A stretch of 64,000 nucleotides of DNA from a virus: positions 12,799 to 76,798 of the IMG/VR virus record IMGVR_UViG_3300025645_000054; one strand, written 5' to 3'. The position numbers and the translations under genes are program-made. This document shows, in pieces, positions 13,238 through 64,000 of this stretch (the stretch's first letter is position 1; every line of letters begins with the position of its first letter). Under the pieces are notes generated by a model. It was not told where the DNA came from. It saw only the letters and a program-made list of their open reading frames with translations, and did no database searches.

Positions 13238-14356
13238 TTATTTGCGGGATTTGAATGAGGCGAAGTTTGAGCTTTTTGGGCTCTTGTCCGCATCTGTGAC
13301 TGCCGAGGCAGAGAGCCCACCGGCGGGCGTTTCGGCCTGCAGATCAGCGGTGGATGCGGTTGGCTTCGGAGCGGTCTTCAGCTCTTCAATCGAGGCCTTC
13401 AGCGTTTCGACCGTAGCGGCCAGCTCTGTGAGAGCTTCAGCAGTTGAGTCTGCCTCCACGGTCTCAGCTGGCACTTCGGTGGGTGTCAGGGCTGTGACCA
13501 GTTCTTGGATACTGGCGTTCAGACCTTCGAAAGCGACCTGGGCATCAAACTCTGCCGTGGAGGCCGCAGGGGTCTCAAGTGTGACCTCCGGTTTTTTCGT
13601 CATCTTGACTTCCTCTTTCATTGTGGTGGGGGATGCAAAGAGCGTCACGGCATCAGGCGAGAAGCCATTTGCTGCCAGACGATCTTGTTGCTCTTGGGGC
13701 ATGACCTTACGGGCCCGACCATGGATCTTCGCGTTGGTGGCTGCGCCCCGGGATACGAGCGACAGCTCCATCCACTTGTCCAGTCCGGACAGGACGGCAT
13801 GGGTGCCATCGACGCCAATGGTGTGATCGTTTTCGCAAGTACGATCCCACATGTGCATAAAATCTGTGTCTTCTGCGAAATAGTCGAAGCCGCACTTGGA
13901 GCAGAGCAGCTGCTCTGACTTCAGGCCGACGGACACCTCGTCGAGGATTCCTAGATTGATGCGCTCAATCAGAGCCGCCTCAGATCGGGGCAGGAAGAAC
14001 TGGGCACGGAGTTCAGAGTTGCCGTCCACCATGTCATCGACATAGGCGTGGAACACTTTACCCACCGGCAATTCATCCCCCTGCAGGTGCAGGGTATGGA
14101 TCGGCACGGCCTCGTTCTTGTCATTCACGCTGGTGGCCATGGCCGACAGGGTGCTGCGCGTGGCCCGGGCGTTCTCAAAGATCGACCCGGCCTTGCTCAG
14201 AGGCAAGGTGTTCAGGGCGGTGGCCTCAAACACGACGATGTCATCAGCGGAGACGTCTGTGTCCGTGACGAAATTGATCTGCTCCAGCATCGCATCCGTA
14301 ACGTCCAGTTGCTTGCGCTTCTGGCGATGCTCGGAAAGTTGTGCTACCTCAGGCAT
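13238..14356 (-). CDS. prohead protease/scaffold
   Basis: H..GDELPVGK, EVSVG, ELSLVSRGA motifs of HK97/U9-type proteases, CxxC insert, acidic coiled C-terminal scaffold region. Confidence 0.8.
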   Translation of the reverse strand: MPEVAQLSEHRQKRKQLDVTDAMLEQINFVTDTDVSADDIVVFEATALNTLPLSKAGSIFENARATRSTLSAMATSVNDKNEAVPIHTLHLQGDELPVGKVFHAYVDDMVDGNSELRAQFFLPRSEAALIERINLGILDEVSVGLKSEQLLCSKCGFDYFAEDTDFMHMWDRTCENDHTIGVDGTHAVLSGLDKWMELSLVSRGAATNAKIHGRARKVMPQEQQDRLAANGFSPDAVTLFASPTTMKEEVKMTKKPEVTLETPAASTAEFDAQVAFEGLNASIQELVTALTPTEVPAETVEADSTAEALTELAATVETLKASIEELKTAPKPTASTADLQAETPAGGLSASAVTDADKSPKSSNFASFKSRK

Positions 14357-14647: not shown

Positions 14648-16108
14648 CTACTTCTCCACTTGGTTTCCATTACCGGCGGGTTTGCCCCCCTCAGGGGTGG
14701 CGGACTTCTCGAGGGCTGAAGGCTGGGTGCCTTCGGCATCGGGGGCTTGGACAGGGTCTAGGAAATTGGTCCCCGACAGCTCCGGGGCGTTGTCAGGCCG
14801 GATCCGGCCATACATCTCGAGGTGATACTCGTCGTCCGAGATGATGCCCCGGGACAGATCCGCCAGCAGGCGGGCCTGTCGCATGGCGTATTGGGCCTCG
14901 AGCTCCGTGGTCGGGCGCATCTCTGCCGGCCGGAAGGTGCAGCTGACGGTGATCTCTTCGTGGCCCAGCATGCGGATGCCCATGGTGAGCATCTGGGAGA
15001 AGAGCTCTCCCACCGGTTCGTTGATCTCTTCCGCGTTCATGGTGAAGAGGCGGGCCTCGACACTTGCGGTGTTCACCCCACTCTCGCCCCGGCCCAAGAT
15101 GGTGGACATGGTGCGCAGGGCCGCTTGGTTCTGAGCGTTCAGGGCCCCGATGATGCTGGTGACGTCGATCCCGGAAGAAGGGTTCTTCTCGTTGAGGATT
15201 TTGGCCTCCAGTGCATCGGTGTGCACAAAGGCCTGTTCCGGGCGCAGGTCTGACAGCTGGGTGGTGAGGTTCTGGATCTGGGTCGCGACCCAGGATGATT
15301 TCTGGCTGGGGTCGGCCGCGACCGCTGCCGGGATGTTCTTCATCAGCACTTCTTCGAGGACCGTCACCTCGATCCGAGGGTACCCGGTGAAGCGCATGAT
15401 CCGGTACAGGTCGTTGACCACCTGTTGGCGGGCCGCGACCGTGTTGATGGAGCTGACGAAGGGGGAGTTCGAATAGATCGATGTCGGATCCCGCCGGAAG
15501 AACGAGATGAAGAACGTGGCCACATCCAGATCAACCTTCTCGGACGAGTTGGTCGGATTCTGCTGGGGCTTGAAGACGGAGTTCTCTTTTTCGAACCATT
15601 CCAGCGTGGCGGTGTCTACGATCCGGATCTGATAGGGCAGCTTCTGCTTGTTCAGGACCAGCTCTGCGGCACAGGCCCCGCGCAGCAGGATCATGTAGCG
15701 CATGTTTTCGCTGATCGCGCGGAGCGACGGCTTCAGCTCAAACCCGGTCTTATAGTCAAACCGGGTGGTCAGGGCCGAGATCAGGACGTTCAGAGATTTC
15801 TGGGCATCCCGATCGATCAGCCCGTCCATGTCTTTGCACACGAACACCGGCTCGGTGTTGGCGACGGTCAGGAAGGCGTTGACGGCGGCGGAGACATCCG
15901 GGTCTTGGACGAAGAGCCGACGCATGAGTTCGCGGCTGTCCGACGCCTGTCGGGTTTCGAAGATGTCTTGAAGGTGGTCCCGGTAATCCGGCAGCGACAG
16001 GATGTTCTCTGAGCTCGACGGGTTAAAGGTCGAGGAGACCGCTGTGCCCCTCGGATTGGTCCGGTTGGGTAGAATAACCTTCAACAGGGATTCAAGATTC
16101 AGGGCCAT
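14648..16108 (-). CDS. portal protein
   Basis: About 486 aa between terminase and protease; DPDVSAAVN and GYPR motifs. Confidence 0.85.
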   Translation of the reverse strand: MALNLESLLKVILPNRTNPRGTAVSSTFNPSSSENILSLPDYRDHLQDIFETRQASDSRELMRRLFVQDPDVSAAVNAFLTVANTEPVFVCKDMDGLIDRDAQKSLNVLISALTTRFDYKTGFELKPSLRAISENMRYMILLRGACAAELVLNKQKLPYQIRIVDTATLEWFEKENSVFKPQQNPTNSSEKVDLDVATFFISFFRRDPTSIYSNSPFVSSINTVAARQQVVNDLYRIMRFTGYPRIEVTVLEEVLMKNIPAAVAADPSQKSSWVATQIQNLTTQLSDLRPEQAFVHTDALEAKILNEKNPSSGIDVTSIIGALNAQNQAALRTMSTILGRGESGVNTASVEARLFTMNAEEINEPVGELFSQMLTMGIRMLGHEEITVSCTFRPAEMRPTTELEAQYAMRQARLLADLSRGIISDDEYHLEMYGRIRPDNAPELSGTNFLDPVQAPDAEGTQPSALEKSATPEGGKPAGNGNQVEK

Positions 16109-21480: not shown

Positions 21481-21590
21481 ATGGAAGAGTGGTCGCGATC
21501 GATCGCGGCGAGTGGCGGGAATACCTCAAGTGGTTGTTGATAGAGAAGGGGCGGTATGATGATGAGCTGAGGGACGTGGATTGAGGAAAG

Positions 21591-21613
21591 AGGGGCCCTG
21601 CGGGGCCCCTTTT
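21591..21613 (+). terminator. intrinsic terminator after the primase
   Basis: AGGGGCCC-TGCG-GGGCCCCT followed by a T-run. Confidence 0.8.
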
Positions 21614-21799
21614 GGTTTATTGTGGTTCATGGCAAAACTCAAAAATTATTGAGATATGTCAGTGGCATAGCAGGCTAAAGCCGTTGCCGATTGGTCAAAA
21701 TAGGGGGTATGGTTGGACTAGGCCGGGTGGCTAGGGCGCAGTGTGTCCTTTTTGCAACACCTCCCGCGCCTGCCCATTGGCCCTAGGGCCGCACCCAAA

Positions 21800-21816
21800 C
21801 TGCGCAAGTTGCGCAA
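21800..21816. promoter_or_regulatory. palindromic operator variant CTGCGCAAGTTGCGCAA
   Basis: Degenerate copy of TTGCGTAA-N-TTACGCAA, 21 nt before ATG 21838. Confidence 0.55.
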
Positions 21817-21837
21817 TTATCCAAGTAGGAACACAAG

Positions 21838-22689
21838 ATGACCAACAAGCAAACAACCACCGCATTGACCGCCTATACCGCTTCACATATCGAATCCGCG
21901 TCCAAAGCCAGCGTTCAAGCGGTCTGCGCTATGATCCTTTGGGGCGCGCATAACCCCGGCGAGTGGATTGAAACCGTATCTGGCAAAACGCCTAAGGCGT
22001 TCAAGGCGTTCAAAGTATCCATTGAAGCCACGGCCGGCGCGGACCGGACGCGTCAGGTAGTGACCGTTGCCAAGAAAGCCTTTGCCTTGCTGGCAGGCGT
22101 GGCAGGCAATGAAAAGGCATTGCGGGACGACGCCGCTATGCGCAAGGACGTGGCTGACCTTTGTAACCGCCTTGTTACATCGTTTGCGGGGCTGACCGTA
22201 GGTCAGGCGATTGAGTCCGACACTGGCCTTTTCACAATGGTGACTGGTGCAAGCGCTGATAGCATGGCTGGCATCAAGGCGGCATATAGCGCGGCCCTTG
22301 ACGCTGATACGCCTGCAGAAGCGCCTGCACCTGCACCTGAATCGGTTGACGTGACCGACGCGGACGCGGACGTTGACGAAAGCCAAGCAACCATTGCCAT
22401 GGATACCAAGTCAGGCGCGAAAAGCGCGATAGATGACGCCATTGCCTTGCTTGCTAGTGTTGTCGCGCATGGCCACGCCGATCAAGCCAGCGCCAAGGCA
22501 ATCAAGGCAATGGCTGACTTTATTGTTCAGGCGGGCAAGCCAAGCGCCTTGCTCTATGCCTTTGACCAATTGGTCGCGGATGCGGCCGATGACATCCCGC
22601 GCTTGGAAGGCATGGTAGCCAGCACGTCCGAGGCGCTGGCAGAGAGCAAGGTGCAAACATGCGGCCCGATTCCCGCAATGGTTGGATGA
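21838..22689 (+). CDS. Ala-rich hypothetical protein (candidate pre-early gene)
   Basis: 283-aa ORF with AGGA SD, upstream operator and distinct word usage. Confidence 0.8.
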   Translation: MTNKQTTTALTAYTASHIESASKASVQAVCAMILWGAHNPGEWIETVSGKTPKAFKAFKVSIEATAGADRTRQVVTVAKKAFALLAGVAGNEKALRDDAAMRKDVADLCNRLVTSFAGLTVGQAIESDTGLFTMVTGASADSMAGIKAAYSAALDADTPAEAPAPAPESVDVTDADADVDESQATIAMDTKSGAKSAIDDAIALLASVVAHGHADQASAKAIKAMADFIVQAGKPSALLYAFDQLVADAADDIPRLEGMVASTSEALAESKVQTCGPIPAMVG

Positions 22690-22730
22690 ATCACAAGCCC
22701 ATGGGGCGTGGCAGAAATGCCACGCCTAGG

Positions 22731-22772
22731 GTGATATTTTTATCACACCGATCGGTGTGATCAAAATGTCAC
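22731..22772. repeat. 42-bp imperfect palindrome made of two GTGA-N8-TCAC boxes
   Basis: GTGATATTTTTATCACACCGA|TCGGTGTGATCAAAATGTCAC; 19 of 21 positions complementary. Confidence 0.9.
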
Positions 22773-22784
22773 TATTTCTTCGCG

Positions 22785-22850
<66 letters not shown>

Positions 22851-22937
22851 TAGGCCCGGGCCTATATACGCGCGTCTACGTGTAGGCCCGCGAGGTTTCT
22901 TCTTAAGAACGCGACCCTCAGTAATTTGAAAATGTTT

Positions 22938-22954
22938 TTGCGTAAGTTACGCAA
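22938..22954. promoter_or_regulatory. 17-bp palindromic operator TTGCGTAAGTTACGCAA
   Basis: Perfect 8+1+8 palindrome repeated at 23753, 25997 and 28817. Confidence 0.8.
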
Positions 22955-22974
22955 TTTTTCCGGGAGCCAAAACC

Positions 22975-23124
22975 ATGTGGCAGCTACTTTCCATCCGCAA
23001 AAATTTCTACGAGACCGAAGAAGTCCTCGTGTGGATCAAGTCCAAGGAGGCAATCCTGCCCCTGATGGACCTCTTAGGGGTCGATGCCGCCACCCTGAGA
23101 CCCCTACCTACGAGCGAGGGCTGA
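22975..23124 (+). CDS. 49-aa small protein (not in the ORF track)
   Basis: MWQLLSIRKNFYETEEVLVWIKSKEAILPLMDLLGVDAATLRPLPTSEG; GGGAG SD; directly after an operator. Confidence 0.55.
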   Translation: MWQLLSIRKNFYETEEVLVWIKSKEAILPLMDLLGVDAATLRPLPTSEG

Positions 23125-23685
23125 GGGGCGTTTGCAGCTTTAAGAAGAAGGCTGTTTCCTAAGAAGTTGTGTGGGCCTCGGCAAATGCAACCTGTAGCGG
23201 GTACGGAGTTAACATAATAAAGGACTTTTCGGCCTTATTTTTGGGGTGGGAGAGTGATTTGGAGTTTGTGCAAGCGAGAGTTGCATTGTTTCTTTTCAAT
23301 GGCTTAGGGCCTTGGGCGTCGGTTTTGCCTGTCAAGTAGATTTTGGCCCTTGGCCAGTAGGGTCCGCATTCAGCGGGGTATAACCCATTGATTTCAAATC
23401 GAACTTTGGACGTTTCTATGCAATCTCTTCTTATTTTTCTTTCTTAAAAGTGGGATAGAAAGAAAGAAGTAAAGAGAGGAAGGGAATTTGGAGATTGCTG
23501 GGAAAAGTAAATATTTTAGTTAGAGAAATTTCACTTCTCTTCTATCCCGCTTTTGAAATTGTCATCCGTGACAGGCCAGTCTGGTCCGGTGTGGGTTTTG
23601 TTCCACCCTTGGGCCACCGGAGTACTCTGGCCTGTCTCGCGTGACAATAGGTTCCCTTGGCCCCCGTCCAAGATCCTATCTCGAC

Positions 23686-23872
23686 CAAGACCCTAGACCA
23701 CGACCCCGATCCGAGAGGATTTCACGACCACGACCACGACCCCGATCCAAGATTGCGTAAGTTACGCAATTCCATTCCGAGAGGAACTCAAGACCCTAGA
23801 CCACGACCCCGATCCGAGAGGATTTCACGACCACAACCCAAGATTGCGTAACATTCCGAGAGGAACTCAAGA
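23686..23872 (+). repeat. tandem duplication of operator/leader unit (period 103 bp)
   Basis: 46-bp exact repeat at 23686-23731 and 23789-23834; CATTCCGAGAGGAACTCAAGA twice; one full and one half operator. Confidence 0.9.
23753..23769. promoter_or_regulatory. 17-bp palindromic operator
   Basis: TTGCGTAAGTTACGCAA. Confidence 0.8.
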
Positions 23873-24225
23873 TGCTTTTACTATGCCTAGCCCTCAATAT
23901 CTACCACGAGGCCCGAGGGGAGCCGATCACAGGCCAGGAGCTGGTCGCCTCTGTTACGCTGAACCGCGTAGCAAGCCCCCTATACCCCGACAACGTCTGC
24001 GATGTGGTCTACCAGCCCCGCCAGTTCGCATGGACCGCAGACCCACCCCCAGTGACCGACACGCAGGCCTTCTACACGGCCCTGATGATCGCATGGGATG
24101 CCCAACCCATCAACGAGGCCACCCACTTCTACAGTGGCCCTGCGCCCTATTGGACGCGACACCCAGATTTTCAACTTGTCGGCCGCGTTTCTGGCCACAC
24201 CTTTTACAAGGAGACACGCCCGTGA
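23872..24225 (+). CDS. SleB-like cell wall hydrolase (Hydrolase_2)
   Basis: CLALNIYHEARGE..GQ.LVA.VTLNRV....PDNVCDVVYQ..QF.W...ATHFY...GHTFY. Confidence 0.9.
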   Translation: MLLLCLALNIYHEARGEPITGQELVASVTLNRVASPLYPDNVCDVVYQPRQFAWTADPPPVTDTQAFYTALMIAWDAQPINEATHFYSGPAPYWTRHPDFQLVGRVSGHTFYKETRP

Positions 24226-24680
24226 CTTTCATCGTGCACTTCGATCAAGACTCCATGAACCCCCGACAGGAGTTCGACCACCTCGGGACACTCGCTATCC
24301 TAGGGTATGGGGGCGATGAGGCCCCAGACCCTCACAACCCCCCACACGACGCCATCATGCTCCCTGTGTACCGCTACCAGCACTCGGGCGTGGCCTACAG
24401 CACCACGCCCTTCCACTGCCCATGGGACAGCGGCCAGACGGGATACATCTACGTGTACCGGTCCACCGTCCGCAAAGAATTCAACGTCAAACGGATAAGC
24501 CCCAAGCTCCACGATCGGGTCCTCGAGATCCTCCGTTCGGAAGTCGAGGAGTTCTCCTCGTGGAGTAATGGTGAGGTCTACGGATTCACCAACAATGAAA
24601 CAGATGACTCATGCTGGGGCTTCTATGGCCTCGAGTCCTTGATCGCAGAGATTGGAGATAATTATGAATTTGCCCAATAA
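24222..24680 (+). CDS. hypothetical protein
   Basis: GTGA overlap start; LPVYRYQHSG...WDSGQTGYIY. Confidence 0.75.
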   Translation: MTFIVHFDQDSMNPRQEFDHLGTLAILGYGGDEAPDPHNPPHDAIMLPVYRYQHSGVAYSTTPFHCPWDSGQTGYIYVYRSTVRKEFNVKRISPKLHDRVLEILRSEVEEFSSWSNGEVYGFTNNETDDSCWGFYGLESLIAEIGDNYEFAQ

Positions 24681-25026
24681 AGTATTGGCCCTGCAGACCA
24701 AACTGGTCAGCACACTCGGCAAGCAGCCCTATATCGACGCCCACCTCCTCGTCACTCCTGCCACCGAATCCCCGTACCAGATCTACTGGTACGGCGACAA
24801 CATCAACGAGGCCACCCGCCTCAACCACACCTCCCTCGACCAGCTCTTCCTTGATGCACACCATCTCCTAGACACCATGCCCACGGAAGAGGAGCGCGAA
24901 CGTCAGATTTTTGAAACCAATCTGCGGAAGCTGATCGACGAGGCCCCGGCCGGGGTCGACGTCACCCTGCTGCAAACTTTCCAATCCGGGTTTGCCAGCA
25001 ACCAGATCGAAGGACCCCGCTCATGA
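24664..25026 (+). CDS. hypothetical protein
   Basis: GGAG SD, coupled to neighbours. Confidence 0.7.
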   Translation: MNLPNKVLALQTKLVSTLGKQPYIDAHLLVTPATESPYQIYWYGDNINEATRLNHTSLDQLFLDAHHLLDTMPTEEERERQIFETNLRKLIDEAPAGVDVTLLQTFQSGFASNQIEGPRS

Positions 25027-25658
25027 AGGTCCTCATTGGCTGCGAGTGCAGCGGTGTCGTGCGTGATGCGTTCTTGGCCCAAGGCCACGACGCATGGTCC
25101 TGCGACATCAAACCCGCCGACACCCCCTCGAACCGTCACATCCAAGGCGACATCCTTGACGTCATGGAAGACAGCTCTTGGGATTTCCTTGCCGTGATGC
25201 ACCCTCCGTGTACCCGGCTGTGCAACTCCGGGGTCCGTTGGCTCTCCTCCCCGCCCCCGGGCCGGACCCTTGAAGAAATGTGGGCCGAACTGGACCAAGG
25301 CGCGGAGCTGTTTTCCAAAGTGTGGAACACCACCATCCCCCGTGTCGCGGTGGAGAACCCGGTCATGCACAAACATGCCAAGGCCCGGATCGAGAACTTC
25401 CAGCCTCACTCTCAATCCGTGCAGCCTTGGCAATTTGGCACGGACCCAGAGGGGCCAGACAACGAGAAGAAGCGGACCTGCCTCTGGCTCCGCAATCTGC
25501 CCCTGCTCCAACCCACCGGCACCTTGGACGGAACCCAAGCCCGGTCCTCCGTCCACCATGCGTCACCCGGACCCGATCGCGCAGCCCTGCGCTCCAAGTT
25601 CTTCCCGGGCCTAGCCCAAGCCATGGCCGAACAGTGGGGCCAAGCCAATGCCTGCTGA
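25023..25658 (+). CDS. short orphan DNA cytosine-5 methyltransferase-like protein
   Basis: VLIGCECSG (motif I variant), SCDI, HPPC (motif IV), ENP (motif VI). Confidence 0.75.
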
Positions 25659-26004
25659 AAATGAAGTCGATCTATCGGTGTTGAGCCGTGACCGTCAACT
25701 ACTGCCTCATCCAAAGTTCACGAACTATTTGATCAGTGATCGGGGGGATGTCGTTACCCTATTCTTCAAGAAGCCTCGACTCCGCAAAGGCTCCAAATCC
25801 AAAGACGGGTATCTGGTGGTTTCCATATCGGTCGAGCACCAGCGGGTTGTATCCCGCCGGATCCACAGGCTCGTGGCCGAAACCTTCATCCCTAATCCAG
25901 AGAACAAACCCTGTGTCCGTCATCTGGATGGGGACAAAACCAACAATCGCGTCCCCAACCTTGCTTGGGGGACCCACGCCGAAATGGAAGAAGGAATTGC
26001 GTAA
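25648..26004 (+). CDS. NUMOD4-HNH homing endonuclease, probably C-terminally truncated
   Basis: [41 protein letters not shown]; lacks the final motif Asn and runs into an operator. Confidence 0.8.
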
Positions 26005-26013: not shown

Positions 26014-26049
26014 TTCTCCTTCCCCTCTCCTCAGAAAGGAACCTATCCA

Positions 26050-26403
26050 ATGAACATCTCCGAACTCTTCGACACCGCCATTGCCGGCCTCGAGGCCCAG
26101 ACCGAGAAGTCCAGCACACCCGGTACGGACCTGTGCCAGTATCATGGCCCCCACGGCACCAAGTGCCTCTTCGGCCACATGATGGACGCTGTACCCGACA
26201 CTATGAACACAGAGACCATCGGGTCCAATGTTATCTTGAAGCTCATCAGAGAATCCAGCGGTGTGGACCTGCTGGACACATTGAAAGCGGCAGACCTCGT
26301 GGCCCTCCAAGACATTCACGACGTCGACTGGAAAGTGGGCTACCCATTCCGCCCCCTGATCCCGGGACACCTGCAACTCAAAATTTGGGGAGATGTCCAA
26401 TGA
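26050..26403 (+). CDS. hypothetical protein, paralog 1
   Basis: LFDTAIA.LE.QTEKS...CQY.GPHGTKCLFGHM...LQ.IHD..WK.G.PFRPLIP.HLQLKIWG shared with the next gene. Confidence 0.8.
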   Translation: MNISELFDTAIAGLEAQTEKSSTPGTDLCQYHGPHGTKCLFGHMMDAVPDTMNTETIGSNVILKLIRESSGVDLLDTLKAADLVALQDIHDVDWKVGYPFRPLIPGHLQLKIWGDVQ

Positions 26404-26771
26404 CATCCATCGACCAACTCTTCGACACCGCAATCGCCGCTCTCGAGTCCCAGACCGAGAAGTCCATCAACCCCAACACAGACATGTGCCAGTACCGGGG
26501 CCCCCACGGCACCAAATGTCTCTTCGGCCACATGATCGCCGATGAGCATTACGAAAAAGTCACGGACAAATTCAGCACTCCAGTGTCGGATCCCAAGGTC
26601 CTGGAATCCATTTTCGCCTCCACGGGGGTGGATCTGAGATATACCTCTCTCGTCAATGAGATCAACAACCTCCAAGCAATTCACGATCACAAATGGAAAC
26701 CGGGCCAACCATTCCGGCCCCTGATCCCAGAGCACCTGCAACTCAAAATTTGGGGGGAGGTCATTACATGA
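26400..26771 (+). CDS. hypothetical protein, paralog 2
   Basis: Tandem paralog of 26050-26403, ATGA overlap. Confidence 0.8.
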   Translation: MTSIDQLFDTAIAALESQTEKSINPNTDMCQYRGPHGTKCLFGHMIADEHYEKVTDKFSTPVSDPKVLESIFASTGVDLRYTSLVNEINNLQAIHDHKWKPGQPFRPLIPEHLQLKIWGEVIT

Positions 26772-28833: not shown

Positions 28834-28880
28834 TTTTAAGCCAACCCCCTAACCCCCCAACCCCCATCCGTGAGGATATC

Positions 28881-29609: not shown

Positions 29610-29706
29610 GTATGACCTGCGACGACCCCTGCGACGACGTATCAAAGGATGTCCAGAAATGGACATCCCCTCCCCCCCCCCCCCAACCCCAATCCGAAAG
29701 GAACAC

Positions 29707-34522: not shown

Positions 34523-34560
34523 CCTAACTTCCCCCCCCCACCCCCATCCGAGAGGATCAC

Positions 34561-35319: not shown

Positions 35320-35509
35320 GGCCCAAGATGCATTCAATGAGGGAGAGAGAAACCCCAATAAATTATTGGACCTAGGCTACTGCCAAGTGTTCTCATTCCG
35401 AACGAGGGATGAGAAAGTCGCGTTCATAGAAGGCCTTAGGATAGGATCCAAAACAGTCAACCCTTGGCTATTTGATCTTTCCGAGTCCGTTCTCTTTCGC
35501 GATACCTGA
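35282..35509 (+). CDS. hypothetical protein
   Basis: GGAG SD before ATG 35282; converges on mucR. Confidence 0.5.
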   Translation: MISHKVMLITGSKAQDAFNEGERNPNKLLDLGYCQVFSFRTRDEKVAFIEGLRIGSKTVNPWLFDLSESVLFRDT

Positions 35510-35824
35510 CCGACGAGTGGAATAATTTGAGGGCACAAACGGATAATCTTCCGGGAGCCCCCAGCGTTCTATGTACTGCTCGTCGGTCATACCGTGGTGA
35601 GTTTTGAGATACCGGCGCAGGAGTTTCACTTCTGCCCCGTCCTCAAGGCACACCAGATAGTCATCGTGGACCGACTCCTCGATCGGCACCGCCGGTACCA
35701 GAACCGGATCCCTCAGATTTTCGAGAGCCTCTTTGATAGCCACAAGGGTGTCAGGGAGTTTTTCGAGGGGAACTTTGTTGTTGGCCAGATAGGCTGCAGC
35801 CAGAGTAATGATGTCGCGGTTCAT
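35468..35824 (-). CDS. mucR: Ros/MucR-family transcriptional silencer
   Basis: AAYLANNKV..EKLP, PAVPIEESVHDDYLVCLEDG, Y.ERWGLP.DYP.V..NYS.RRS.IAK..GLG are diagnostic; GGAGG SD. Confidence 0.92.
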   Translation of the reverse strand: MNRDIITLAAAYLANNKVPLEKLPDTLVAIKEALENLRDPVLVPAVPIEESVHDDYLVCLEDGAEVKLLRRYLKTHHGMTDEQYIERWGLPEDYPFVPSNYSTRRSGIAKENGLGKIK

Positions 35825-35839
35825 AATACCTCCCAAGAG

Positions 35840-35869
35840 ATTTCCATGCAATGTCTTGCATGGAAATGT
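35840..35869. promoter_or_regulatory. inverted pair of the 16-bp motif between divergent mucR and KTSC genes
   Basis: ATTTCCATGCAA-TGTC-TTGCATGGAAAT(GT). Confidence 0.7.
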
Positions 35870-35907
35870 CGACAACTGTCAACCACCAAAGTAAAAGGAA
35901 GATAACC

Positions 35908-36276
35908 ATGAAGGACGAAAAAATGACCAAAGATGAAATTCATATCCGTAAAGCTCCCTCCTGGGCCTGGAGGGTAATCGACGAACTCATTTCAGACCAC
36001 CTGGGGAGCTCCCTCATCAAATCGGCCGCGGATCAGATGTTTGAAGATGTGGAGGTGGTCATGCAACCCGTGGTGAGCAGCAACATCGCAGCGGTAGGGT
36101 TCAGGGAATTTTGCGGACTCATGGTAGTCCAGTTCAAGAACGGGTCAATCTATCAATATGATAATGTTACCCCAGAGTTGTATCACGAAATCGTGAACGC
36201 TGACTCCGTGGGCTCGACCTTTAACCGGGTGGTCAAGTCCAACCCGACCGCGTACCCCTTCACCAAGCTCATCTAG
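35908..36276 (+). CDS. KTSC domain protein
   Basis: VVSSNIAAVGF...VQFKNGSIYQY.NV..E.Y..IVNA.SVG..FN..VK. Confidence 0.85.
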   Translation: MKDEKMTKDEIHIRKAPSWAWRVIDELISDHLGSSLIKSAADQMFEDVEVVMQPVVSSNIAAVGFREFCGLMVVQFKNGSIYQYDNVTPELYHEIVNADSVGSTFNRVVKSNPTAYPFTKLI

Positions 36277-36298
36277 AGCGGTAATCCGAGAGGATCTC

Positions 36299-36616
36299 AT
36301 GCTTACAACTTCCGATGTCGCGGGCCGGCTGAACGTCAGCTCCCGTACCGTACAGCGCCTCATCCAAAGTGAGGGGTTGCCAGCGTTCCGCATCGGAGGG
36401 CATTATCGCTACGTCGAGCAGGAGCTCGATCGTTGGCTAGTCCGTAAACGTATGAGGACCACATGGAACAAGGACAAGGTCGCGTCTACACGCGCCCCGA
36501 GAGCAGGTCATACTGGATCGAATATAGAAGTTCTGACGGACGGAAAATTCGAAGATCTGCTAAAACCCAAGACAAGAAAGAAGCTGAAGCCGAGCTGGGA
36601 AGGCTCCTTCGGTTGA
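36299..36616 (+). CDS. xis: excisionase-type helix-turn-helix protein
   Basis: MLTTSDVA..LNVS.RTV.RLI...GLPA.RIGG.YR....EL..W; directly upstream of the integrase. Confidence 0.8.
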   Translation: MLTTSDVAGRLNVSSRTVQRLIQSEGLPAFRIGGHYRYVEQELDRWLVRKRMRTTWNKDKVASTRAPRAGHTGSNIEVLTDGKFEDLLKPKTRKKLKPSWEGSFG

Positions 36617-37506
36617 GGACCTCGATTTCCTTCAAAGAGGCGGTCGTGGACTTCTTCGAGGTGAATGGCCACGGGCGTCTCAAGCCCAAAACCATTCAGA
36701 ACTACGAAACCTCTCTCAGAGCGGTGGCTCCACTTTTTTCAGAATTGTCTTTGGACGAGATCCGAACGGATCAGCTCAAACAATTGGTACGTGAACGGCG
36801 CAAGACTGTGTCGGACACATCTGTGAAGAGGGATCTCGCTTTTGTCTCAAGCGTGTTCAGTCATGCAATTGGGACCATGCCGCAGGCACCGGAAACTAAC
36901 CCTGTTCTTAGCTTCAGTAAACGTCACCTAAAGGAACAGGCAAGAACCCGGTGGCTGCGGCCGCACGAGTATGATCGGCTCATTGAGAGCTGCCAAAACC
37001 CCACACAAGCACTGGTCATCAAGACCGCAACCCTGACCGGGATGCGGCACACTGAGCTGTCCAGTCTCCGGAAGGGGATGATCAATTTTCAGAAAAAGGA
37101 GGTCATACTAGATGTTGATCTGACGAAGAACGGAAAGGAGCGGGTCGTACCCCTCTGTGCGTCACTGTGTTTCGACCTGGAACAGCTGTGTCTACGAACA
37201 CCGGGGGATTTAGTGTTCTGCTATATGCATGGCGCTACCCGGGAGTGGAGATCTTATCAGAATTTCTCCAACTTCTGGGATGGTGTTCGAACCCGAGCCA
37301 ACTTGAAAGATGTGAGGTTTCACGACCTTAGGCATACTTTCGCCTCGTGGTGGGTACAGGCAAATGGGGATCTGCTGCGACTGAGGGACATCCTCGGACA
37401 CAGCTCTCTCCAGATGGTCCAGCGGTATGCCCACCTGAACACAGGCGGGCATCACGCGGAGATAAACGAGGTGTTCGAAACACACTTTGCACACAGCCTC
37501 GAATAA
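36463..37506 (+). CDS. int: tyrosine integrase
   Basis: TGMRHTE (R), TKNG (K), FHDLRHT (HxxR), LGHS...RY (H, Y); N-terminal arm-binding-like strand; adjacent attP. Confidence 0.95.
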   Translation: MEQGQGRVYTRPESRSYWIEYRSSDGRKIRRSAKTQDKKEAEAELGRLLRLRTSISFKEAVVDFFEVNGHGRLKPKTIQNYETSLRAVAPLFSELSLDEIRTDQLKQLVRERRKTVSDTSVKRDLAFVSSVFSHAIGTMPQAPETNPVLSFSKRHLKEQARTRWLRPHEYDRLIESCQNPTQALVIKTATLTGMRHTELSSLRKGMINFQKKEVILDVDLTKNGKERVVPLCASLCFDLEQLCLRTPGDLVFCYMHGATREWRSYQNFSNFWDGVRTRANLKDVRFHDLRHTFASWWVQANGDLLRLRDILGHSSLQMVQRYAHLNTGGHHAEINEVFETHFAHSLE

Positions 37507-37541
37507 TACCGGACACAGACCCCGGGTAAGTCTTTGATAAG

Positions 37542-37590
37542 TGGTGAGCCGTGCAGGATTCGAACCTGCGACCCACTGATTAAAAGTCAG
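37542..37590 (-). other. attP core: 3' 49 nt of tRNA-Lys(UUU)
   Basis: Minus strand reads CTGACTTTTAATCAG-TGGGTC-GCAGGTTCGAATCCTGC-ACGGCTC-ACCA (anticodon arm, T arm, acceptor 3' strand, CCA); no D arm or 5' acceptor strand upstream. Confidence 0.9.
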
Positions 37591-37722
37591 TACTAGCCAG
37601 CGTCAAAATTAATCTAAGGTACTGGTTTCACTCACTTATCACTGACGACACCCGGGGTCATGTGCGCCAGGAAACCCTGTTCGCGACACACTTTTGCGGA
37701 CACAGCACATTTGGTAGGCATC

Positions 37723-38118
37723 ATGAAGAATACGCAACGAAACAACGGCATCGCCCAGGAGTATATCCGGGGCTCAACTCTGGAGCAGATCTCTTCAGAG
37801 TATGGGATTTCCCCCCGGATGATCAGGTACATCCTGACCCAGAAGGGCCTCAGAGCTGAGGACCGTAAAAAACAACCCTCTTTTGATCTGGCTCCAAGCC
37901 CCCGCAGCCAACTTCATCTAAAGATTGGACAGCGGCTCTATGAGGCTTACTTTGTTAAGAGGGGTCTAAGCCGCGCCGAAGCGGCGGTCAAAATGGGGAT
38001 CAGTGCCAAGGGTTTGAGGAACCTTGAGAGCGGAAGATCGAATATTGACCTGCTGACTTTGCAGAACATTGCAGGTTTCATGGAAATAAGTGTGGGAGAA
38101 CTCATTGATGGCAGTTGA
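37723..38118 (+). CDS. two-HTH transcriptional regulator (C-terminal XRE-type), candidate repressor
   Basis: N-terminal GSTLEQIS.EYGIS.R.I; C-terminal RGLSRAEAA..MGIS...L.NLESG......TL..IA. Confidence 0.8.
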   Translation: MKNTQRNNGIAQEYIRGSTLEQISSEYGISPRMIRYILTQKGLRAEDRKKQPSFDLAPSPRSQLHLKIGQRLYEAYFVKRGLSRAEAAVKMGISAKGLRNLESGRSNIDLLTLQNIAGFMEISVGELIDGS

Positions 38119-61567: not shown

Positions 61568-64000
61568 TATGTCACGTCCCCTGAAATAAAGCACTGCGTT
61601 CCGCTGGTAAAAAGCACCGTACAGAGGCCGTAGGACGCCAGTGTGAACGACGCCACGTCAGCGCCTCCCATGTAGGCTGTGGTGATGGAACATGTGACGG
61701 TACGATCTGACCCGGAGGCATTTACGAGAGTGAAAATGTCCCCCGCCGCAAAAGTGCTGTTGGGAATGACCGGAGTGGCCGCGCCTGTGATATAGACATA
61801 CTGGCCTACATCAGTTGTCAGCAGGTTTCCGTTGGCTGTGAACGCTCGTGCTTGGGGAAGTTTTGCACTGACGGGAAGACCGTCAACTGTGAAAGAACCA
61901 ACGACCGCATTTGTGATGTACCCACTATCATTCGTGAAAACAGAGACATTGGCACCTGAGGAAACATAGCTGCTGTCGTTCGTGAAAACAGAGACATTGG
62001 CACCTGAGGAAACATAGCTACTATCATTCGTGAGAGCTGAGACATTGGCACCTGAGGAAATATAATTGCTGTCGTTTGTGAGAGCTGAGACATTATCCCC
62101 AGCAATCAGTGCGGGGGAATTATCGTAGCCGCCAGTCTCAGCATAGACCTGCCAAGTTGTGTCTGAGTATACCAGTGTGACCTTAAGACCACCAACATCG
62201 CACACGAGGTCTTCTGCAAGACCTGCGATGGTTGAACCATTTCGTGCGATTGTCAGATTGTTGGTTTCCCAATCCTCTGCACTATCAGAGACACTTACAG
62301 TATCACCAAGAGCAGGGGCGGCGGGGAGGGTGACGGTAAATGCCCCGGCTCCCGTGTCAGCAATCACAAAGTCATTTGCAGCGGCAGTGTAAGCAGTGGT
62401 TTTCACGACTGTGTTCGTAGGCGATCCACCGCCGCCTCCATTAGCAAGAACGAATGCTGTTGTAGCTAGCTGCGTTGTGTTGGTTCCAGCGGTTGCTGTG
62501 GGTGCTGTCGGTGTGCCTGTAAGAGCTGGGGAAGCCAGAGGAGCTTTTGCTGCGAGAGCCGTATCCAAGCCCGTGACCTGAGCCGTGGTGTGCGTATGCG
62601 AGGAGGCGGCTTTGCCATCCAACGCAGTCTGGAGACCATCGACATTGGCGATAACATGGTTGTGGCTATCATCAGCAATGGTTGCCGTGATGGTGACATT
62701 TGCAGAGCCATTGAAAGACGCTGAGCCAGTTACGTCTCCGCCAAGAGAGATGGTTCTGGCTGTGGCGAGTGTCGCTGCTGTCGCTGCTGCACCCCCGTCT
62801 GCTGATGTGATATATCCGCTATTGTTGGTCAGCGTAGAGATGTTGTCCCCAGGCTGCGTTGCACTTGCAGCCAAAGTGCCTTGAGCCGCTGTGGCATAAG
62901 ACGCAGGATTGAAAGCCTTCACGGCTGCGAGGTTGGTGACTTCGCTGTCCATGACTGCGCCAGCGGCGGTGACGTTGGCTGTGTCTGTTACGTCTGCGCC
63001 AGCTTCGATACCGTCAAGTTTGGATTCGTCTGCAACAAGGAAAGACGCCGTAGTGGCATTAAGAACAGCGCTGTACCCTTGGACCGTGGAGCCAATTGCT
63101 GCGGGTTGAAGTGCGGTATCTGCCAAAGCACCCTGAGCCGTAGTAGCCTTACCAGCAAGCGCTGTATCCAGACCTGTGACTTGGGCTGTTGTATGCGTGT
63201 GAGAAGATGCAGCTTTACCATCCAACGCAGTCTGAAGGCCATCTACGTTACCGATGATGTGCGCGTGGCTATCGTCTGCGATGGTCGCAGTGATCGACAC
63301 GTTGCCAGAGCCATCAAAGTTAGTAGAGCCTGTCACGTCGCCTGTCAGGGCAATGTTACGAGCCGTGGTCAGTGTGTCAGCATTGGGATGGTAACCGTCC
63401 GTGAAAACGCGGTTTGTATCTTCATATAATGTATTGTGGCTGGTGTTTTGAGCGGCCGTAAACGTCATAGCGGGATCAGTGGAGTGTGTTGCTCCTGTTC
63501 CGATCTGTACAGCACCGCCACTGCCATTGGTGAAGTACAGTGTGCCTCGATTACCTAGAACGCCGTATCCGCTAACGCGAAGATTGTCTGTTGCCGCCGC
63601 TGGATTGCCAACATCAATCGCTCCAAGAACAAGAGTTCCAGACATGGTATCACCGGTCTTAGAAACTTTAGTCGCAATGCTATTCGTTACAGTCGTGGCA
63701 AAGTTCGGATCATCGCCTAAGGCCGCTGCAAGTTCATTCAGCGTATCAATGGTTCCGGGTGCACCGTCTACGAGATCAGCTACAACCGCCTTCACGAAGG
63801 ACGTGGTGGCGATCTGTGTCGTGTTGGTGGTCGAGACCGCTGTGGGCGCTGTAGGCGTCCCTGTGAGCGCAGGAGATGTCAGAGGAGCCTTGAGAGCCAG
63901 AGCAGCATCAAGCCCATCCACATTGGCTGTGGTGTGGTTGTGACTGTCATCTGCTACCGTGGCTGTGATCGTGATGTTCGCGGAGCCATTGAAGGAAGTG
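61567..64000 (-). CDS. long tail fibre protein (5' end outside the window)
   Basis: Frame open to the window edge; DTLNELAAALGDDPNFATT, repeated TAR.I.L.GDVTGS..F.GS.NV.I, KLDGIEAGA and SPALTGTPTAPTA fibre modules. Confidence 0.9.
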   Translation of the reverse strand, partial: TSFNGSANITITATVADDSHNHTTANVDGLDAALALKAPLTSPALTGTPTAPTAVSTTNTTQIATTSFVKAVVADLVDGAPGTIDTLNELAAALGDDPNFATTVTNSIATKVSKTGDTMSGTLVLGAIDVGNPAAATDNLRVSGYGVLGNRGTLYFTNGSGGAVQIGTGATHSTDPAMTFTAAQNTSHNTLYEDTNRVFTDGYHPNADTLTTARNIALTGDVTGSTNFDGSGNVSITATIADDSHAHIIGNVDGLQTALDGKAASSHTHTTAQVTGLDTALAGKATTAQGALADTALQPAAIGSTVQGYSAVLNATTASFLVADESKLDGIEAGADVTDTANVTAAGAVMDSEVTNLAAVKAFNPASYATAAQGTLAASATQPGDNISTLTNNSGYITSADGGAAATAATLATARTISLGGDVTGSASFNGSANVTITATIADDSHNHVIANVDGLQTALDGKAASSHTHTTAQVTGLDTALAAKAPLASPALTGTPTAPTATAGTNTTQLATTAFVLANGGGGGSPTNTVVKTTAYTAAANDFVIADTGAGAFTVTLPAAPALGDTVSVSDSAEDWETNNLTIARNGSTIAGLAEDLVCDVGGLKVTLVYSDTTWQVYAETGGYDNSPALIAGDNVSALTNDSNYISSGANVSALTNDSSYVSSGANVSVFTNDSSYVSSGANVSVFTNDSGYITNAVVGSFTVDGLPVSAKLPQARAFTANGNLLTTDVGQYVYITGAATPVIPNSTFAAGDIFTLVNASGSDRTVTCSITTAYMGGADVASFTLASYGLCTVLFTSGTQCFISGDVT
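61915..62100 (-). repeat. four 48-bp (16-aa) tandem repeats in the tail fibre
   Basis: (SS)GANVS(A/V)(L/F)TNDS(S/N/G)Y(I/V) x4; DNA unit contains GAGACATTGGCACCTGAGGAAA. Confidence 0.85.

Follow-up and report, generated by a model that had tools for sequence, protein, structure and literature searches.

Tandem duplication of a motif-rich leader ahead of the first early gene in a JWF-like siphophage

Introduction

Many genes of the Cluster K mycobacteriophages are headed by SAS/ESAS elements, in which a 13-bp motif with symmetric ends contains a Shine-Dalgarno (SD) sequence and lies 3-7 bp before mostly ATG starts (PMC3203893). SAS motifs precede unrelated non-structural genes, with rare geneless copies (e.g. 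Anaya site 7), and for about half of them an inverted repeat lies upstream, its consensus varying with the subcluster (PMC3203893). The function of SAS/ESAS was still undetermined in 2025 (PMC12699233).

Here we describe a comparable pairing of a start-associated motif and an upstream palindrome in a JWF-like siphophage, centred on a stack of motif copies, most of them without a start codon behind them (orphans), just ahead of the first gene of the rightward early/accessory block. Judged by layout, the closest known analogue is SAS/ESAS of Cluster K. In both systems, symmetric outer bases (GGG…CCC in SAS, TCC…GGA here) surround an SD core that lies 3-7 nt before the start codons, mostly ATG, of unrelated genes; the motifs share one orientation and are confined to the non-structural half of the genome; a subset of copies is preceded by an inverted repeat with a sublineage-specific consensus, and rare copies lie away from gene starts (Anaya site 7 there, the orphans here). 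The two differ in sequence (GGGATAGGAGCCC in SAS, TCCGARAGGA here, which does not match the 13-bp consensus at ≤2 mismatches), in host (actinobacterial there, probably alphaproteobacterial here), and in the inverted repeat, which is a compact, perfect 19-21-bp element here but consists of two 17-bp arms with a 4-13-bp spacer in Cluster K. A stack of orphans heading the early region has not been described for Cluster K. Because there is no shared sequence and the phages and hosts are unrelated, we regard the present system as an analogue of SAS/ESAS and not as a member.

Individual features of the locus recall other described systems. The stoperators of mycobacteriophage L5 and Cluster A are 13-bp, asymmetric, orientation-dependent sites with proven repressor binding. 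Like them, the palindrome described here is a short site repeated in short intergenic gaps near early gene starts of a probably temperate phage, but it is symmetric, has five full copies within 7 kb, and is a putative operator only. The STAB-SD of Bacillus thuringiensis cryIIIA is likewise an SD-like sequence in a 5' leader that has no start codon behind it and is retained by selection; it is single-stranded, binds 30S subunits and protects the mRNA, whereas the orphans are predicted to bury their SD in a 5-6-bp hairpin. In the lambda nut site, boxB is a 5-bp hairpin with a GNRA-type loop in the early-operon leader of a temperate phage, and this geometry fits the orphans of our phage, of one relative (L023) and two copies in another (L005). 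The loop of one further L005 orphan is GUCA rather than GNRA, however, no boxA-like conserved sequence or N-like protein was found, and the motif here also serves many genes as their ribosome-binding site. T7-like phages have short tandem repeats, variable between lineages, on the inner side of a direct terminal repeat, and the locus described here resembles them in its lineage-variable arrays and in its position beside a terminal repeat (the latter by analogy with phages JWF and Lumi), but has a different repeat unit and belongs to a different phage family. Sponge RNAs of the CsrB/RsmZ type differ in exposing GGA in a loop rather than holding it in a stem, and in forming independent transcription units with a terminator of their own.

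In this marine, probably alphaproteobacterial JWF-like group, a start-associated motif and an upstream palindrome thus stand before many unrelated early genes. An independent second instance beside SAS/ESAS, whose function has been unknown since 2011, offers a comparative handle, with natural variants that include longer-stem orphans, a crippled palindrome and one relative without palindromes. A covarying hairpin of ~90 nt next to the stack is also of note: at the terminal-repeat boundary, it may well represent a new cis-regulatory RNA or else a single-strand DNA signal.

The phage and its relatives

The window (the whole 64-kb stretch of DNA analysed) comprises bases 12799-76798 of one virus record of 76,798 bp, and the phage is a JWF-like siphophage of 76.8 kb. 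Its minus strand carries a gpA-type large terminase and the structural genes, and a plus-strand block extends from ~18 kb onward, headed by a Prim-Pol/D5-type primase-helicase. The best protein-level relatives of this primase are those of Achromobacter phages JWF and 2-1 and Xylophilus phage Lumi (~55% identity), and its identity to that of Caulobacter phage Seuss is 45%. Genes for a tyrosine integrase, an HTH_17 (Xis-like) protein and a Cro/CI-type HTH_3 protein indicate that the phage is probably temperate. A MucR homologue is also encoded, and together with the marine relatives it points to a host that is probably alphaproteobacterial. No tRNA or tmRNA was found.

Searches of 50,697 phage records (megablast and blastn) gave no DNA match for 22000-26000 or 22600-24300, so that no close cultured relative was found at the DNA level, and the primase relatives in the genome collection were only distant (40-55% identity). 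The nearest relatives are marine metagenome and IMG/VR contigs, the closest being L023 (87% primase identity over the C-terminal part), followed by L019 (80%), L005/L012 (76%), and a group at 62% (L007, L020, L016 and L015). Comparisons among close relatives cover four contigs only, the closest of them at 87% primase identity. An IMG/VR search with the 283-aa protein encoded beside the locus returned no relatives, and homologues of the SleB-type protein encoded just past the stack reached at most 46% identity over their full length (one partial match, 59%), in unrelated contexts.

Layout of the duplicated leader

The features of the locus, in order along the plus strand, are as follows.

23542..23661, plus strand: long hairpin of ~90 nt, with arms at 23558-23591 and 23615-23648, directly upstream of the stack
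23669 and 23686 (zone 23669..23697), with a third at 23789, plus strand: CAAGAYCC motifs
23673-23684, plus strand: degenerate relic of a fifth hairpin, ATCCTATCTCGA, which aligns with an upstream orphan (H0) of L005
23686..23788, plus strand: copy 1, with CAAGACCC motif, orphan hairpin H1, full palindrome, and start motif H2 without a start codon
23708..23721, plus strand: orphan hairpin H1, GAUCC-GAGA-GGAUU, with five pairs including one G-U and no start codon behind
23752..23770, plus strand: full palindrome ATTGCGTAAGTTACGCAAT, intact, 19 bp
23775..23786, plus strand: start motif H2, TTCC-GAGA-GGAA, its start codon cut off by the junction (…ACTCAAGA|CCCTAG)
23789..23867, plus strand: copy 2, 78/79 identical to copy 1, with two 12-nt pieces missing
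23811..23824, plus strand: hairpin H3, a duplicate of H1
23843..23851, plus strand: left half of the palindrome, ATTGCGTAA, the right half gone with a 12-nt deletion
23854..23865, plus strand: working start motif H4, TTCC-GAGA-GGAA, with Shine-Dalgarno sequence GAGAGGA 7 nt before ATG
23872..24225, plus strand: SleB-type cell-wall hydrolase gene, 117 aa (PF07486, Hydrolase_2, E = 8e-20)

The stack consists of two head-to-tail copies of 103 nt and 79 nt without a spacer between them. In a global alignment 78 of the 79 aligned bases are identical and two 12-nt gaps separate the copies; the direct repeat 23686-23735/23789-23838 has 98% identity and a period of 103. One of the two deletions in copy 2 takes out ACGACCCCGATC and the other the right half of the palindrome. 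The copies together hold four TCCGAGAGGA motifs (exact starts 23710, 23776, 23813 and 23855), one full 19-bp palindrome and one half palindrome. The two remaining exact TCCGAGAGGA in the 64-kb window, at 34547 and 36285, each lie 4 nt before ATG. Within the stack, an ATG stands behind the last motif only (23872), and the first three are followed by no ATG, GTG or TTG with a plausible ORF. That ATG opens the SleB-type gene, the first of the rightward early/accessory block, which is found with the same start in L023.

This layout is the one given by the original prediction, which described a 103-bp-period duplication holding four leader hairpins, one full and one half operator, and an ATG behind the last hairpin only. 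The strings it compared are also correct, namely ATCCGAGAGGATTTC-ACG at 23709 and 23812 against ATCCGAGAGGATCAC-ATG at 34546, and GAGGAACTCAAG-ACC at 23780 against GAGGAACTCAAG-ATG at 23860, and it rightly recognised copies of a phage gene-leader element without genes. The use of ACG as a start codon was rejected (the frame is open to 24680, across the SleB-type gene), as was a 64-aa ORF with a TTG start (23657-23851), for which conservation is absent. Besides the 103-nt unit, the zone also contains a CACGAC hexamer repeated 3.8 times.

The locus in related phages

The neighbourhood of the stack has the same order of genes and elements in L023, L005 and L019 as in the window. The upstream part comprises the 283-aa gene, a short GC-rich hexamer array, a small ORF and the conserved block GGCCCTTGGCCAGTAGGG; the downstream part comprises an AT-rich hub with conserved blocks, the long hairpin, a repeat-rich zone and the first early gene. 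The gene that follows the repeat-rich zone is the SleB-type gene in the window and L023, and is a different one in L005 and in L019.

When the loci are aligned, the homologous unit occurs once in L023 (reading TTCCGAAAGGAA … ATTGCGTAAGTTACGCAG … TCCGAGAGGAACACATGATG), once in L005 and twice in the window. In L005 the orphan is itself duplicated again, with a 32-nt period, and the further orphan H0 lies upstream; the L005 orphans at 15052 and 15084 are the positional homologues of H1 in the window. L019 has one start motif and no orphan, and the palindrome is absent throughout its 6.2 kb. The number of motif copies across the window and its relatives is thus 1, 2, 4 and 4. An IMG/VR pattern search for two TCCGAGAGGA 15-45 nt apart retrieved only the L005/L012 contig, apart from coincidences in coding sequence.

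No ORF lies between motifs in any relative. The slots of L023 are empty, and in L005 one orphan is followed by ATG-TAA and the next by an 18-codon uORF overlapping the main start (ATGA), neither of which has a counterpart in the window or L023. Lineage-specific tandem repeats are nevertheless present between the long hairpin and the first gene in all four relatives (25 nt x3.2 in L023; 7 nt x3.7 and 19 nt x2.3 in L019; the 32-nt orphan repeat in L005; 33 nt x3 in L007). The four close relatives all show enrichment of the 8-mer CAAGA[AC]CC in this zone, exclusively on the plus strand, and three of them have it within their repeated unit. Judged by these comparisons, the locus behaves like an accordion, though one of non-coding modules rather than genes. 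The idea of a collapsed accordion in the original prediction is upheld to that extent, by the tandem repeats of the four relatives, but its further proposal that the empty leaders are scars of gene deletions finds no support.

Origin of the duplication

The sequence CAAGA occurs at 23686, at the junction at 23789 and at 23868, and thus provides microhomology at both ends of the duplicated unit. The junction between the copies reads …GGAACT|CAAGACCC, and the sequence past copy 2 reads …GGAACT|CAAGATG. Head-to-tail repeats flanked by a 5-nt microhomology typically result from slippage or microhomology-mediated duplication. The features by which such a tandem duplication is recognised are all present here: the copies abut, a short sequence is shared at their flanks, and a single-copy relative exists, namely L023, which has the same first gene and 87% primase identity. 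The near identity of the copies indicates that the duplication is young. It also explains the empty motif H2, because the junction falls inside the start codon (CAAGA|TG becoming CAAGA|CC). With H2 and H3 attributable to the duplication, H1 is, on this comparison, the old orphan and the only ancestral one among the three empty motifs.

On balance, we consider it probable that the stack arose by a young, microhomology-mediated duplication, in a slippage-prone control region, of an ancestral leader whose orphan forms a small, conserved RNA hairpin, with additional copies that are neutral or have a mild modulatory effect. The segment would be the untranslated 5' control region of the SleB-type gene, built from two short reused modules, the start-associated motif and the palindrome, that stand ahead of many non-structural genes. 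The ancestral order would be orphan hairpin, palindrome, start motif and ATG, as still seen in L023 and L005. The whole 103-nt unit would then have been duplicated head to tail through slippage or recombination at CAAGA, and two 12-nt deletions would afterwards have trimmed the gene-proximal copy and wrecked its palindrome. The region is presumably transcribed as a single leader, with a protein binding the palindrome. The orphans have been kept in three lineages with longer stems than those of the working copies, and we therefore infer that they are small RNA hairpins that bury an SD-like sequence in the leader RNA, such that translation would start at the last motif only. Whatever the role of the orphans, the duplication itself is an ordinary mutational event.

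The start-associated motif

The general form of the motif, TCC-GNRA-GGA, stands 4-7 nt before the ATG of seven plus-strand genes in the window (23855, 28867, 29693, 32074, 34547, 36285 and 38987), and also heads many genes in L005, L019, L020 and L023. Outside coding sequence, all copies other than the orphans lie 4-9 nt before the ATG of a real ORF. The sequences most common upstream of the phage genes are GAAAGGA, AAAGGA and GAGGA, which are matched by the 3' part of the motif (GARAGGA), which makes the motif primarily a ribosome-binding site. The 3' tail …CCUCCUUUCU of many 16S rRNAs would be able to base-pair with GAAAGGA. The copies fall into two classes, ATCC-GNRA-GGAT-NNC-ATG and TCC-GARA-GGAACACATGATG.

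The orphan stems of the window, L023 and L005 have 5-6 pairs, compared with 3-4 pairs in 21 gene-heading copies, a contrast that does not come from independent samples because the orphans are homologous to each other. The outer pairs of the orphans differ between lineages yet remain paired, and the loops of orphans and motifs are GAGA, GAAA, GUGA or GUCA. The trend in stem length suggests that the orphans have been maintained as hairpins. As a whole, the window stack folds no better than shuffled sequences (z = -1.7 and -0.45), and the L005 stack folds much better (z = -4.2).

The upstream hairpin and the terminal repeat

The long hairpin is conserved in the four close relatives, with a consensus of 31 pairs of which 19 show double compensatory changes. 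Its alignment contains ~16 G-U cells against one C-A cell, so that G-U pairs occur on the plus strand only, and its covariance model scores ~97-105 bits on the plus strand compared with 17.7 bits for the only minus-strand match. From this pattern we conclude that it is a plus-strand single-stranded structure, either RNA or single-stranded DNA. The model detected no further copies in the window or in 13 other loci. Rfam gave no window match at the gathering threshold, and for 22650-23950 returned chance-level miRNA-like matches only (E > 0.1).

The long hairpin folds on the plus strand only and has no U-tract behind it, features that favour rightward transcription across the stack. Were the hairpin RNA, transcription would come from the hub into the stack, and the stack would lie within a leader of ~320 nt; the hairpin would then probably belong to the same 5' leader as the stack. 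No sigma-70-like promoter was found on the plus strand between 21400 and 30000, and no terminator-like site between 23660 and 23872, where the stack runs into the SleB start. A Rho-utilisation site was considered for the C-rich window stack (C/G = 1.7) and rejected, the ratio being only 1.1-1.3 in L023, L019 and L005.

The apical loop of the hairpin is UGUUCCUC in L023, L005 and L019, and is exactly complementary there to GAGGAACA of the common start motif. The window has UGUUCCAC instead, which weakens the pairing with the start motif, and we treat this complementarity as a lead only.

The 1,466-bp direct terminal repeat of JWF includes homologues of both the 283-aa gene and the small ORF; it ends right after the latter, just before the equivalent intergenic region. 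Lumi has a direct terminal repeat of 2,298 bp (PMC9959647). By analogy, the hub, hairpin and stack of the present phage would sit just inside the left direct terminal repeat, which we predict to cover roughly 21650-23200 and to stop shortly before the AT-rich hub.

Alternative explanations

The copy number of the stack might itself be under selection. The orphan SD hairpins would then be decoy or standby sites, acting in cis or processed to act in trans on 30S subunits, on the anti-SD-like apical loop of the upstream hairpin, or on a phage RNA-binding protein, which could be a translational repressor or an N-like antiterminator at a boxB-like GNRA hairpin. Orphans occur at the stack position only in each genome. 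They have multiplied separately in the window, as a 103-nt unit, and in L005, as a 32-nt unit, and such expansion in two lineages could mean copy-number selection rather than neutral slippage. The longer stems, whose outer pairs are retained despite lineage differences, the loop complementarity in three relatives, and the folding of the L005 stack are all compatible with such a role. It is harder to reconcile with a copy number that is not conserved, with L019 lacking an orphan altogether, and with the window itself, where the loop pairs less well and the stack folds like its shuffles. The GGA also lies in the 3' arm of the stem, whereas CsrA-type sponge RNAs have it in the loop; a scan of ~40 early proteins recognised no RNA-binding protein, and neither a boxA-like element nor an N-like gene was identified. 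A selected multi-copy decoy thus seems possible, though on the unlikely side. For its variant as a free sponge RNA with four GNRA hairpins, the second alternative of the original prediction, the clear plus-strand single-stranded structure immediately upstream is a point in favour, but the stack continues into the SleB start without an intervening terminator, and its last hairpin serves as the SleB ribosome-binding site.

We consider it unlikely that the stack is a DNA-level element in which the leader motifs are incidental, that is, a set of iterons or a cis site of a replication origin, of packaging or of the terminal-repeat boundary, bound by the P4-alpha-like primase-helicase or by the terminase. 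The setting would suit such an element: the stack lies 130 nt from the AT-rich hub with its conserved blocks and flanking inverted repeats, the adjoining long plus-strand hairpin could be a single-strand priming signal, the JWF terminal-repeat boundary maps to the same neighbourhood, and the phage encodes a Prim-Pol/D5-type primase-helicase. CAAGA[AC]CC, enriched on the plus strand of all four relatives and amplified by different tandem repeats in three, would be the candidate binding site. Its spacing (7, 17, 25 and 103 nt), however, shows neither helical phasing nor a constant iteron length and is not conserved; the motif is only 8 nt long, and its enrichment is partly due to the very duplications to be explained. 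Moreover, the two longest conserved pieces of the stack stand before start codons elsewhere.

Deletion of genes between leaders by recombination between repeated start motifs, as put forward in the original prediction, appears quite unlikely. Start motifs of 18-20 nt are near-identical before unrelated genes and could support such recombination, the gene past the stack differs among relatives, and L005 orphans retain an ATG at normal spacing (ATG-TAA, and ATG plus 17 codons). Tandem duplication nevertheless accounts fully for H2 and H3, H2 through the position of the junction and H3 as a copy of H1, so that gene loss is possible only for the ancestral orphan H1. The sequence behind the orphans matches no gene start. 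The alignment with relatives that the original prediction had proposed as a check found no gene in any slot, which is half of what it had named as evidence against itself. It had further contrasted ACG with the ATG of functional copies. The same position varies (CATG, CAAG or CACG) in working leaders (CATGATG, CAAGATG and CACGACATG), so that the ACG/AAG/ATG variation behind the orphans is found also at the first, unused ATG position of functional copies, and ACG is therefore not a specific sign of inactivation.

A more elaborate proposal, which we regard as very unlikely, would join the anti-SD loop of the ~90-nt hairpin and the orphan SD hairpins into one RNA device at the head of the early transcript. 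The loop would silence genes bearing the start motif in cis or in trans, the decoys would buffer it, early translation would thereby be timed, and tandem expansion and contraction would tune the copy number.

That the second copy is an assembly artefact absent from the phage DNA is highly improbable, since a duplicate made by an assembler would not normally be expected to differ by one substitution and two 12-nt deletions, and independently assembled relatives also have tandem repeats at the locus.

The palindrome as a putative operator

Under the favoured reading of a duplicated leader, the second module lost part of one copy, and its distribution elsewhere bears on what it may bind. Five full palindromes (21800, 22938, 23753, 25997 and 28817) fall within 7 kb of the window around the hub, and every one of them is followed, at a distance of 0-32 nt, by a ribosome-binding site and ATG. 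The palindrome is 19-21 bp long and lies ahead of only a subset of start motifs. Its consensus varies between the window and L023, L005, and JWF: L005 has six palindromes with a concerted compensatory change of the half-sites (TTGCGTAA/TTACGCAA versus TTGCGCAC/GTGCGCAA), and JWF has GTTCG-TTA-CGAAC palindromes before homologues of the same two genes. The exact palindrome gave three single, unrelated matches in IMG/VR, and no conserved -35-like box was found at a fixed distance upstream of the palindromes.

A plus-strand RNA hairpin was rejected as the form in which the palindrome acts, as its wobble-type asymmetries are divided between the strands (seven plus, five minus) and a double-stranded protein site fits at least equally well. 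The lack of strand bias, together with the absence of the palindrome from L019, is more easily reconciled with a double-stranded operator bound by a lineage-specific regulator than with an RNA hairpin. The palindrome is thus most likely an operator for a phage regulator. Possible regulators encoded in the window are the HTH_17 protein (36299-36616) and the Cro/CI-type HTH_3 protein (37660-38118), the latter being our candidate for the protein that binds the palindrome.

Conserved long hairpin upstream of the stack

The stack, a 103-bp tandem duplication with leader hairpins (window 23686-23867), lies upstream of the first early gene, which encodes a SleB-type hydrolase. It is itself preceded by a conserved long hairpin (~90 nt), with covariation across four sequences and counterparts in the close marine metagenome relatives L023, L005 and L019.

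Window 23542-23661, plus strand: conserved long hairpin, arms 23558-23591 and 23615-23648
L023 2375-2487: counterpart
L005 14819-14939: counterpart
L019 4083-4195: counterpart

The consensus contains 31 pairs, and at 19 of these both bases change in a compensatory manner (n = 4 sequences only); the apical sequence UGUUCC(U/A)CCC(U/G)UGGGCC is conserved. The excess of G-U over C-A cells in the four-sequence alignment (~16 versus 1), together with the compensatory changes, indicates a single-stranded structure of the plus strand. The hairpin has no Rfam match, and a covariance model search of the window and 13 other loci found no additional copies. The structure may serve as a leader RNA, a small RNA or a signal in single-stranded DNA.

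AT-rich hub and terminal repeats

Upstream of the long hairpin and the stack is an AT-rich hub, also found in the relatives, including the more distant L020 (62% primase-identity group).

Window 23330-23560: AT-rich hub
L023 2140-2372: AT-rich hub
L005 14590-14835: AT-rich hub
L019 3840-4095: AT-rich hub
L020 14520-14735: AT-rich hub

The minimum GC per 100 nt is ~0.31 in the window and 0.19 in the relatives, and the conserved blocks are GGCCCTTGGCCAGTAGGG, TTTTTCTTTCTTAAAAG-GGATAG and CTAT-CC-CTTTTGAAA. The hub is flanked by an inverted repeat (window 23446-23460 and 23540-23554), whose pairing is kept in L023 through a compensatory change. The hub may act as an origin or mark the boundary of a terminal repeat.

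Achromobacter phage JWF (NC_029075.1) has an exact direct terminal repeat of 1,466 bp (1-1466 and 80076-81541), containing gp001/gp002 (= gp070/gp069). Synteny with JWF predicts a terminal repeat at ~21650-23200 of the window, which would begin past the primase terminator (21588-21613) and end shortly before the hub. Separately, the start of the record (first ~735 bp) is similar to sequence ~1 kb short of its end, record 1-248 and 515-735 corresponding to window 62974-63221 (97.6% identity) and 63692-63912 (93%). This is a diverged repeat, not exact terminal redundancy.

Palindromes and start motifs

Palindromes precede the ribosome-binding sites of early genes throughout the family except in L019, whose 6.2 kb contain none despite an 80% identical primase.

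Window 21800, 22938, 23753, 25997, 28817: palindromes, half-site TTGCGTAA (shared with L023)
L005 13051, 14167, 15109, 16515, 17983, 19703: palindromes, half-site TTGCGCAC
JWF 13258-13272, 14183-14197: palindromes, half-site GTTCG

The half-sites thus differ by lineage. At 15066-15153 of L005, one orphan start motif leads into an ORF of just a start and a stop codon (ATG-TAA). Behind the next orphan is an 18-codon uORF, which crosses the palindrome and overlaps the main start with its terminal ATGA, a possible case of translational coupling. This uORF arrangement is not present in the window. Several window start motifs (TCC-GNRA-GGA) directly follow long C-tracts (up to ~13 C), which are G-tracts on the template strand.

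Window 28841-28866, 29672-29692, 34525-34546: C-tracts before start motifs

Lysogeny-type module and other duplications

The window phage is probably temperate, judging from its gene content.

Window 35468-38118: lysogeny-type module encoding a MucR homologue (minus strand), a KTSC-domain protein, an HTH_17 Xis-like protein, a tyrosine integrase and a Cro/CI HTH_3 protein

In the early region, the neighbouring genes 26050-26403 and 26400-26771 share 82-83% DNA identity and represent a tandem gene duplication.

Window 26046-26183 and 26396-26536: duplicated segments
Window 26304-26397 and 26669-26762: duplicated segments

A (CGCCCG)x11.7 hexamer array (window 22781-22850) separates the 283-aa gene from the small ORF, both of which precede the hub. 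L023, L005 and L019 have only ~3 copies at the matching position, so the expansion is specific to the window phage.
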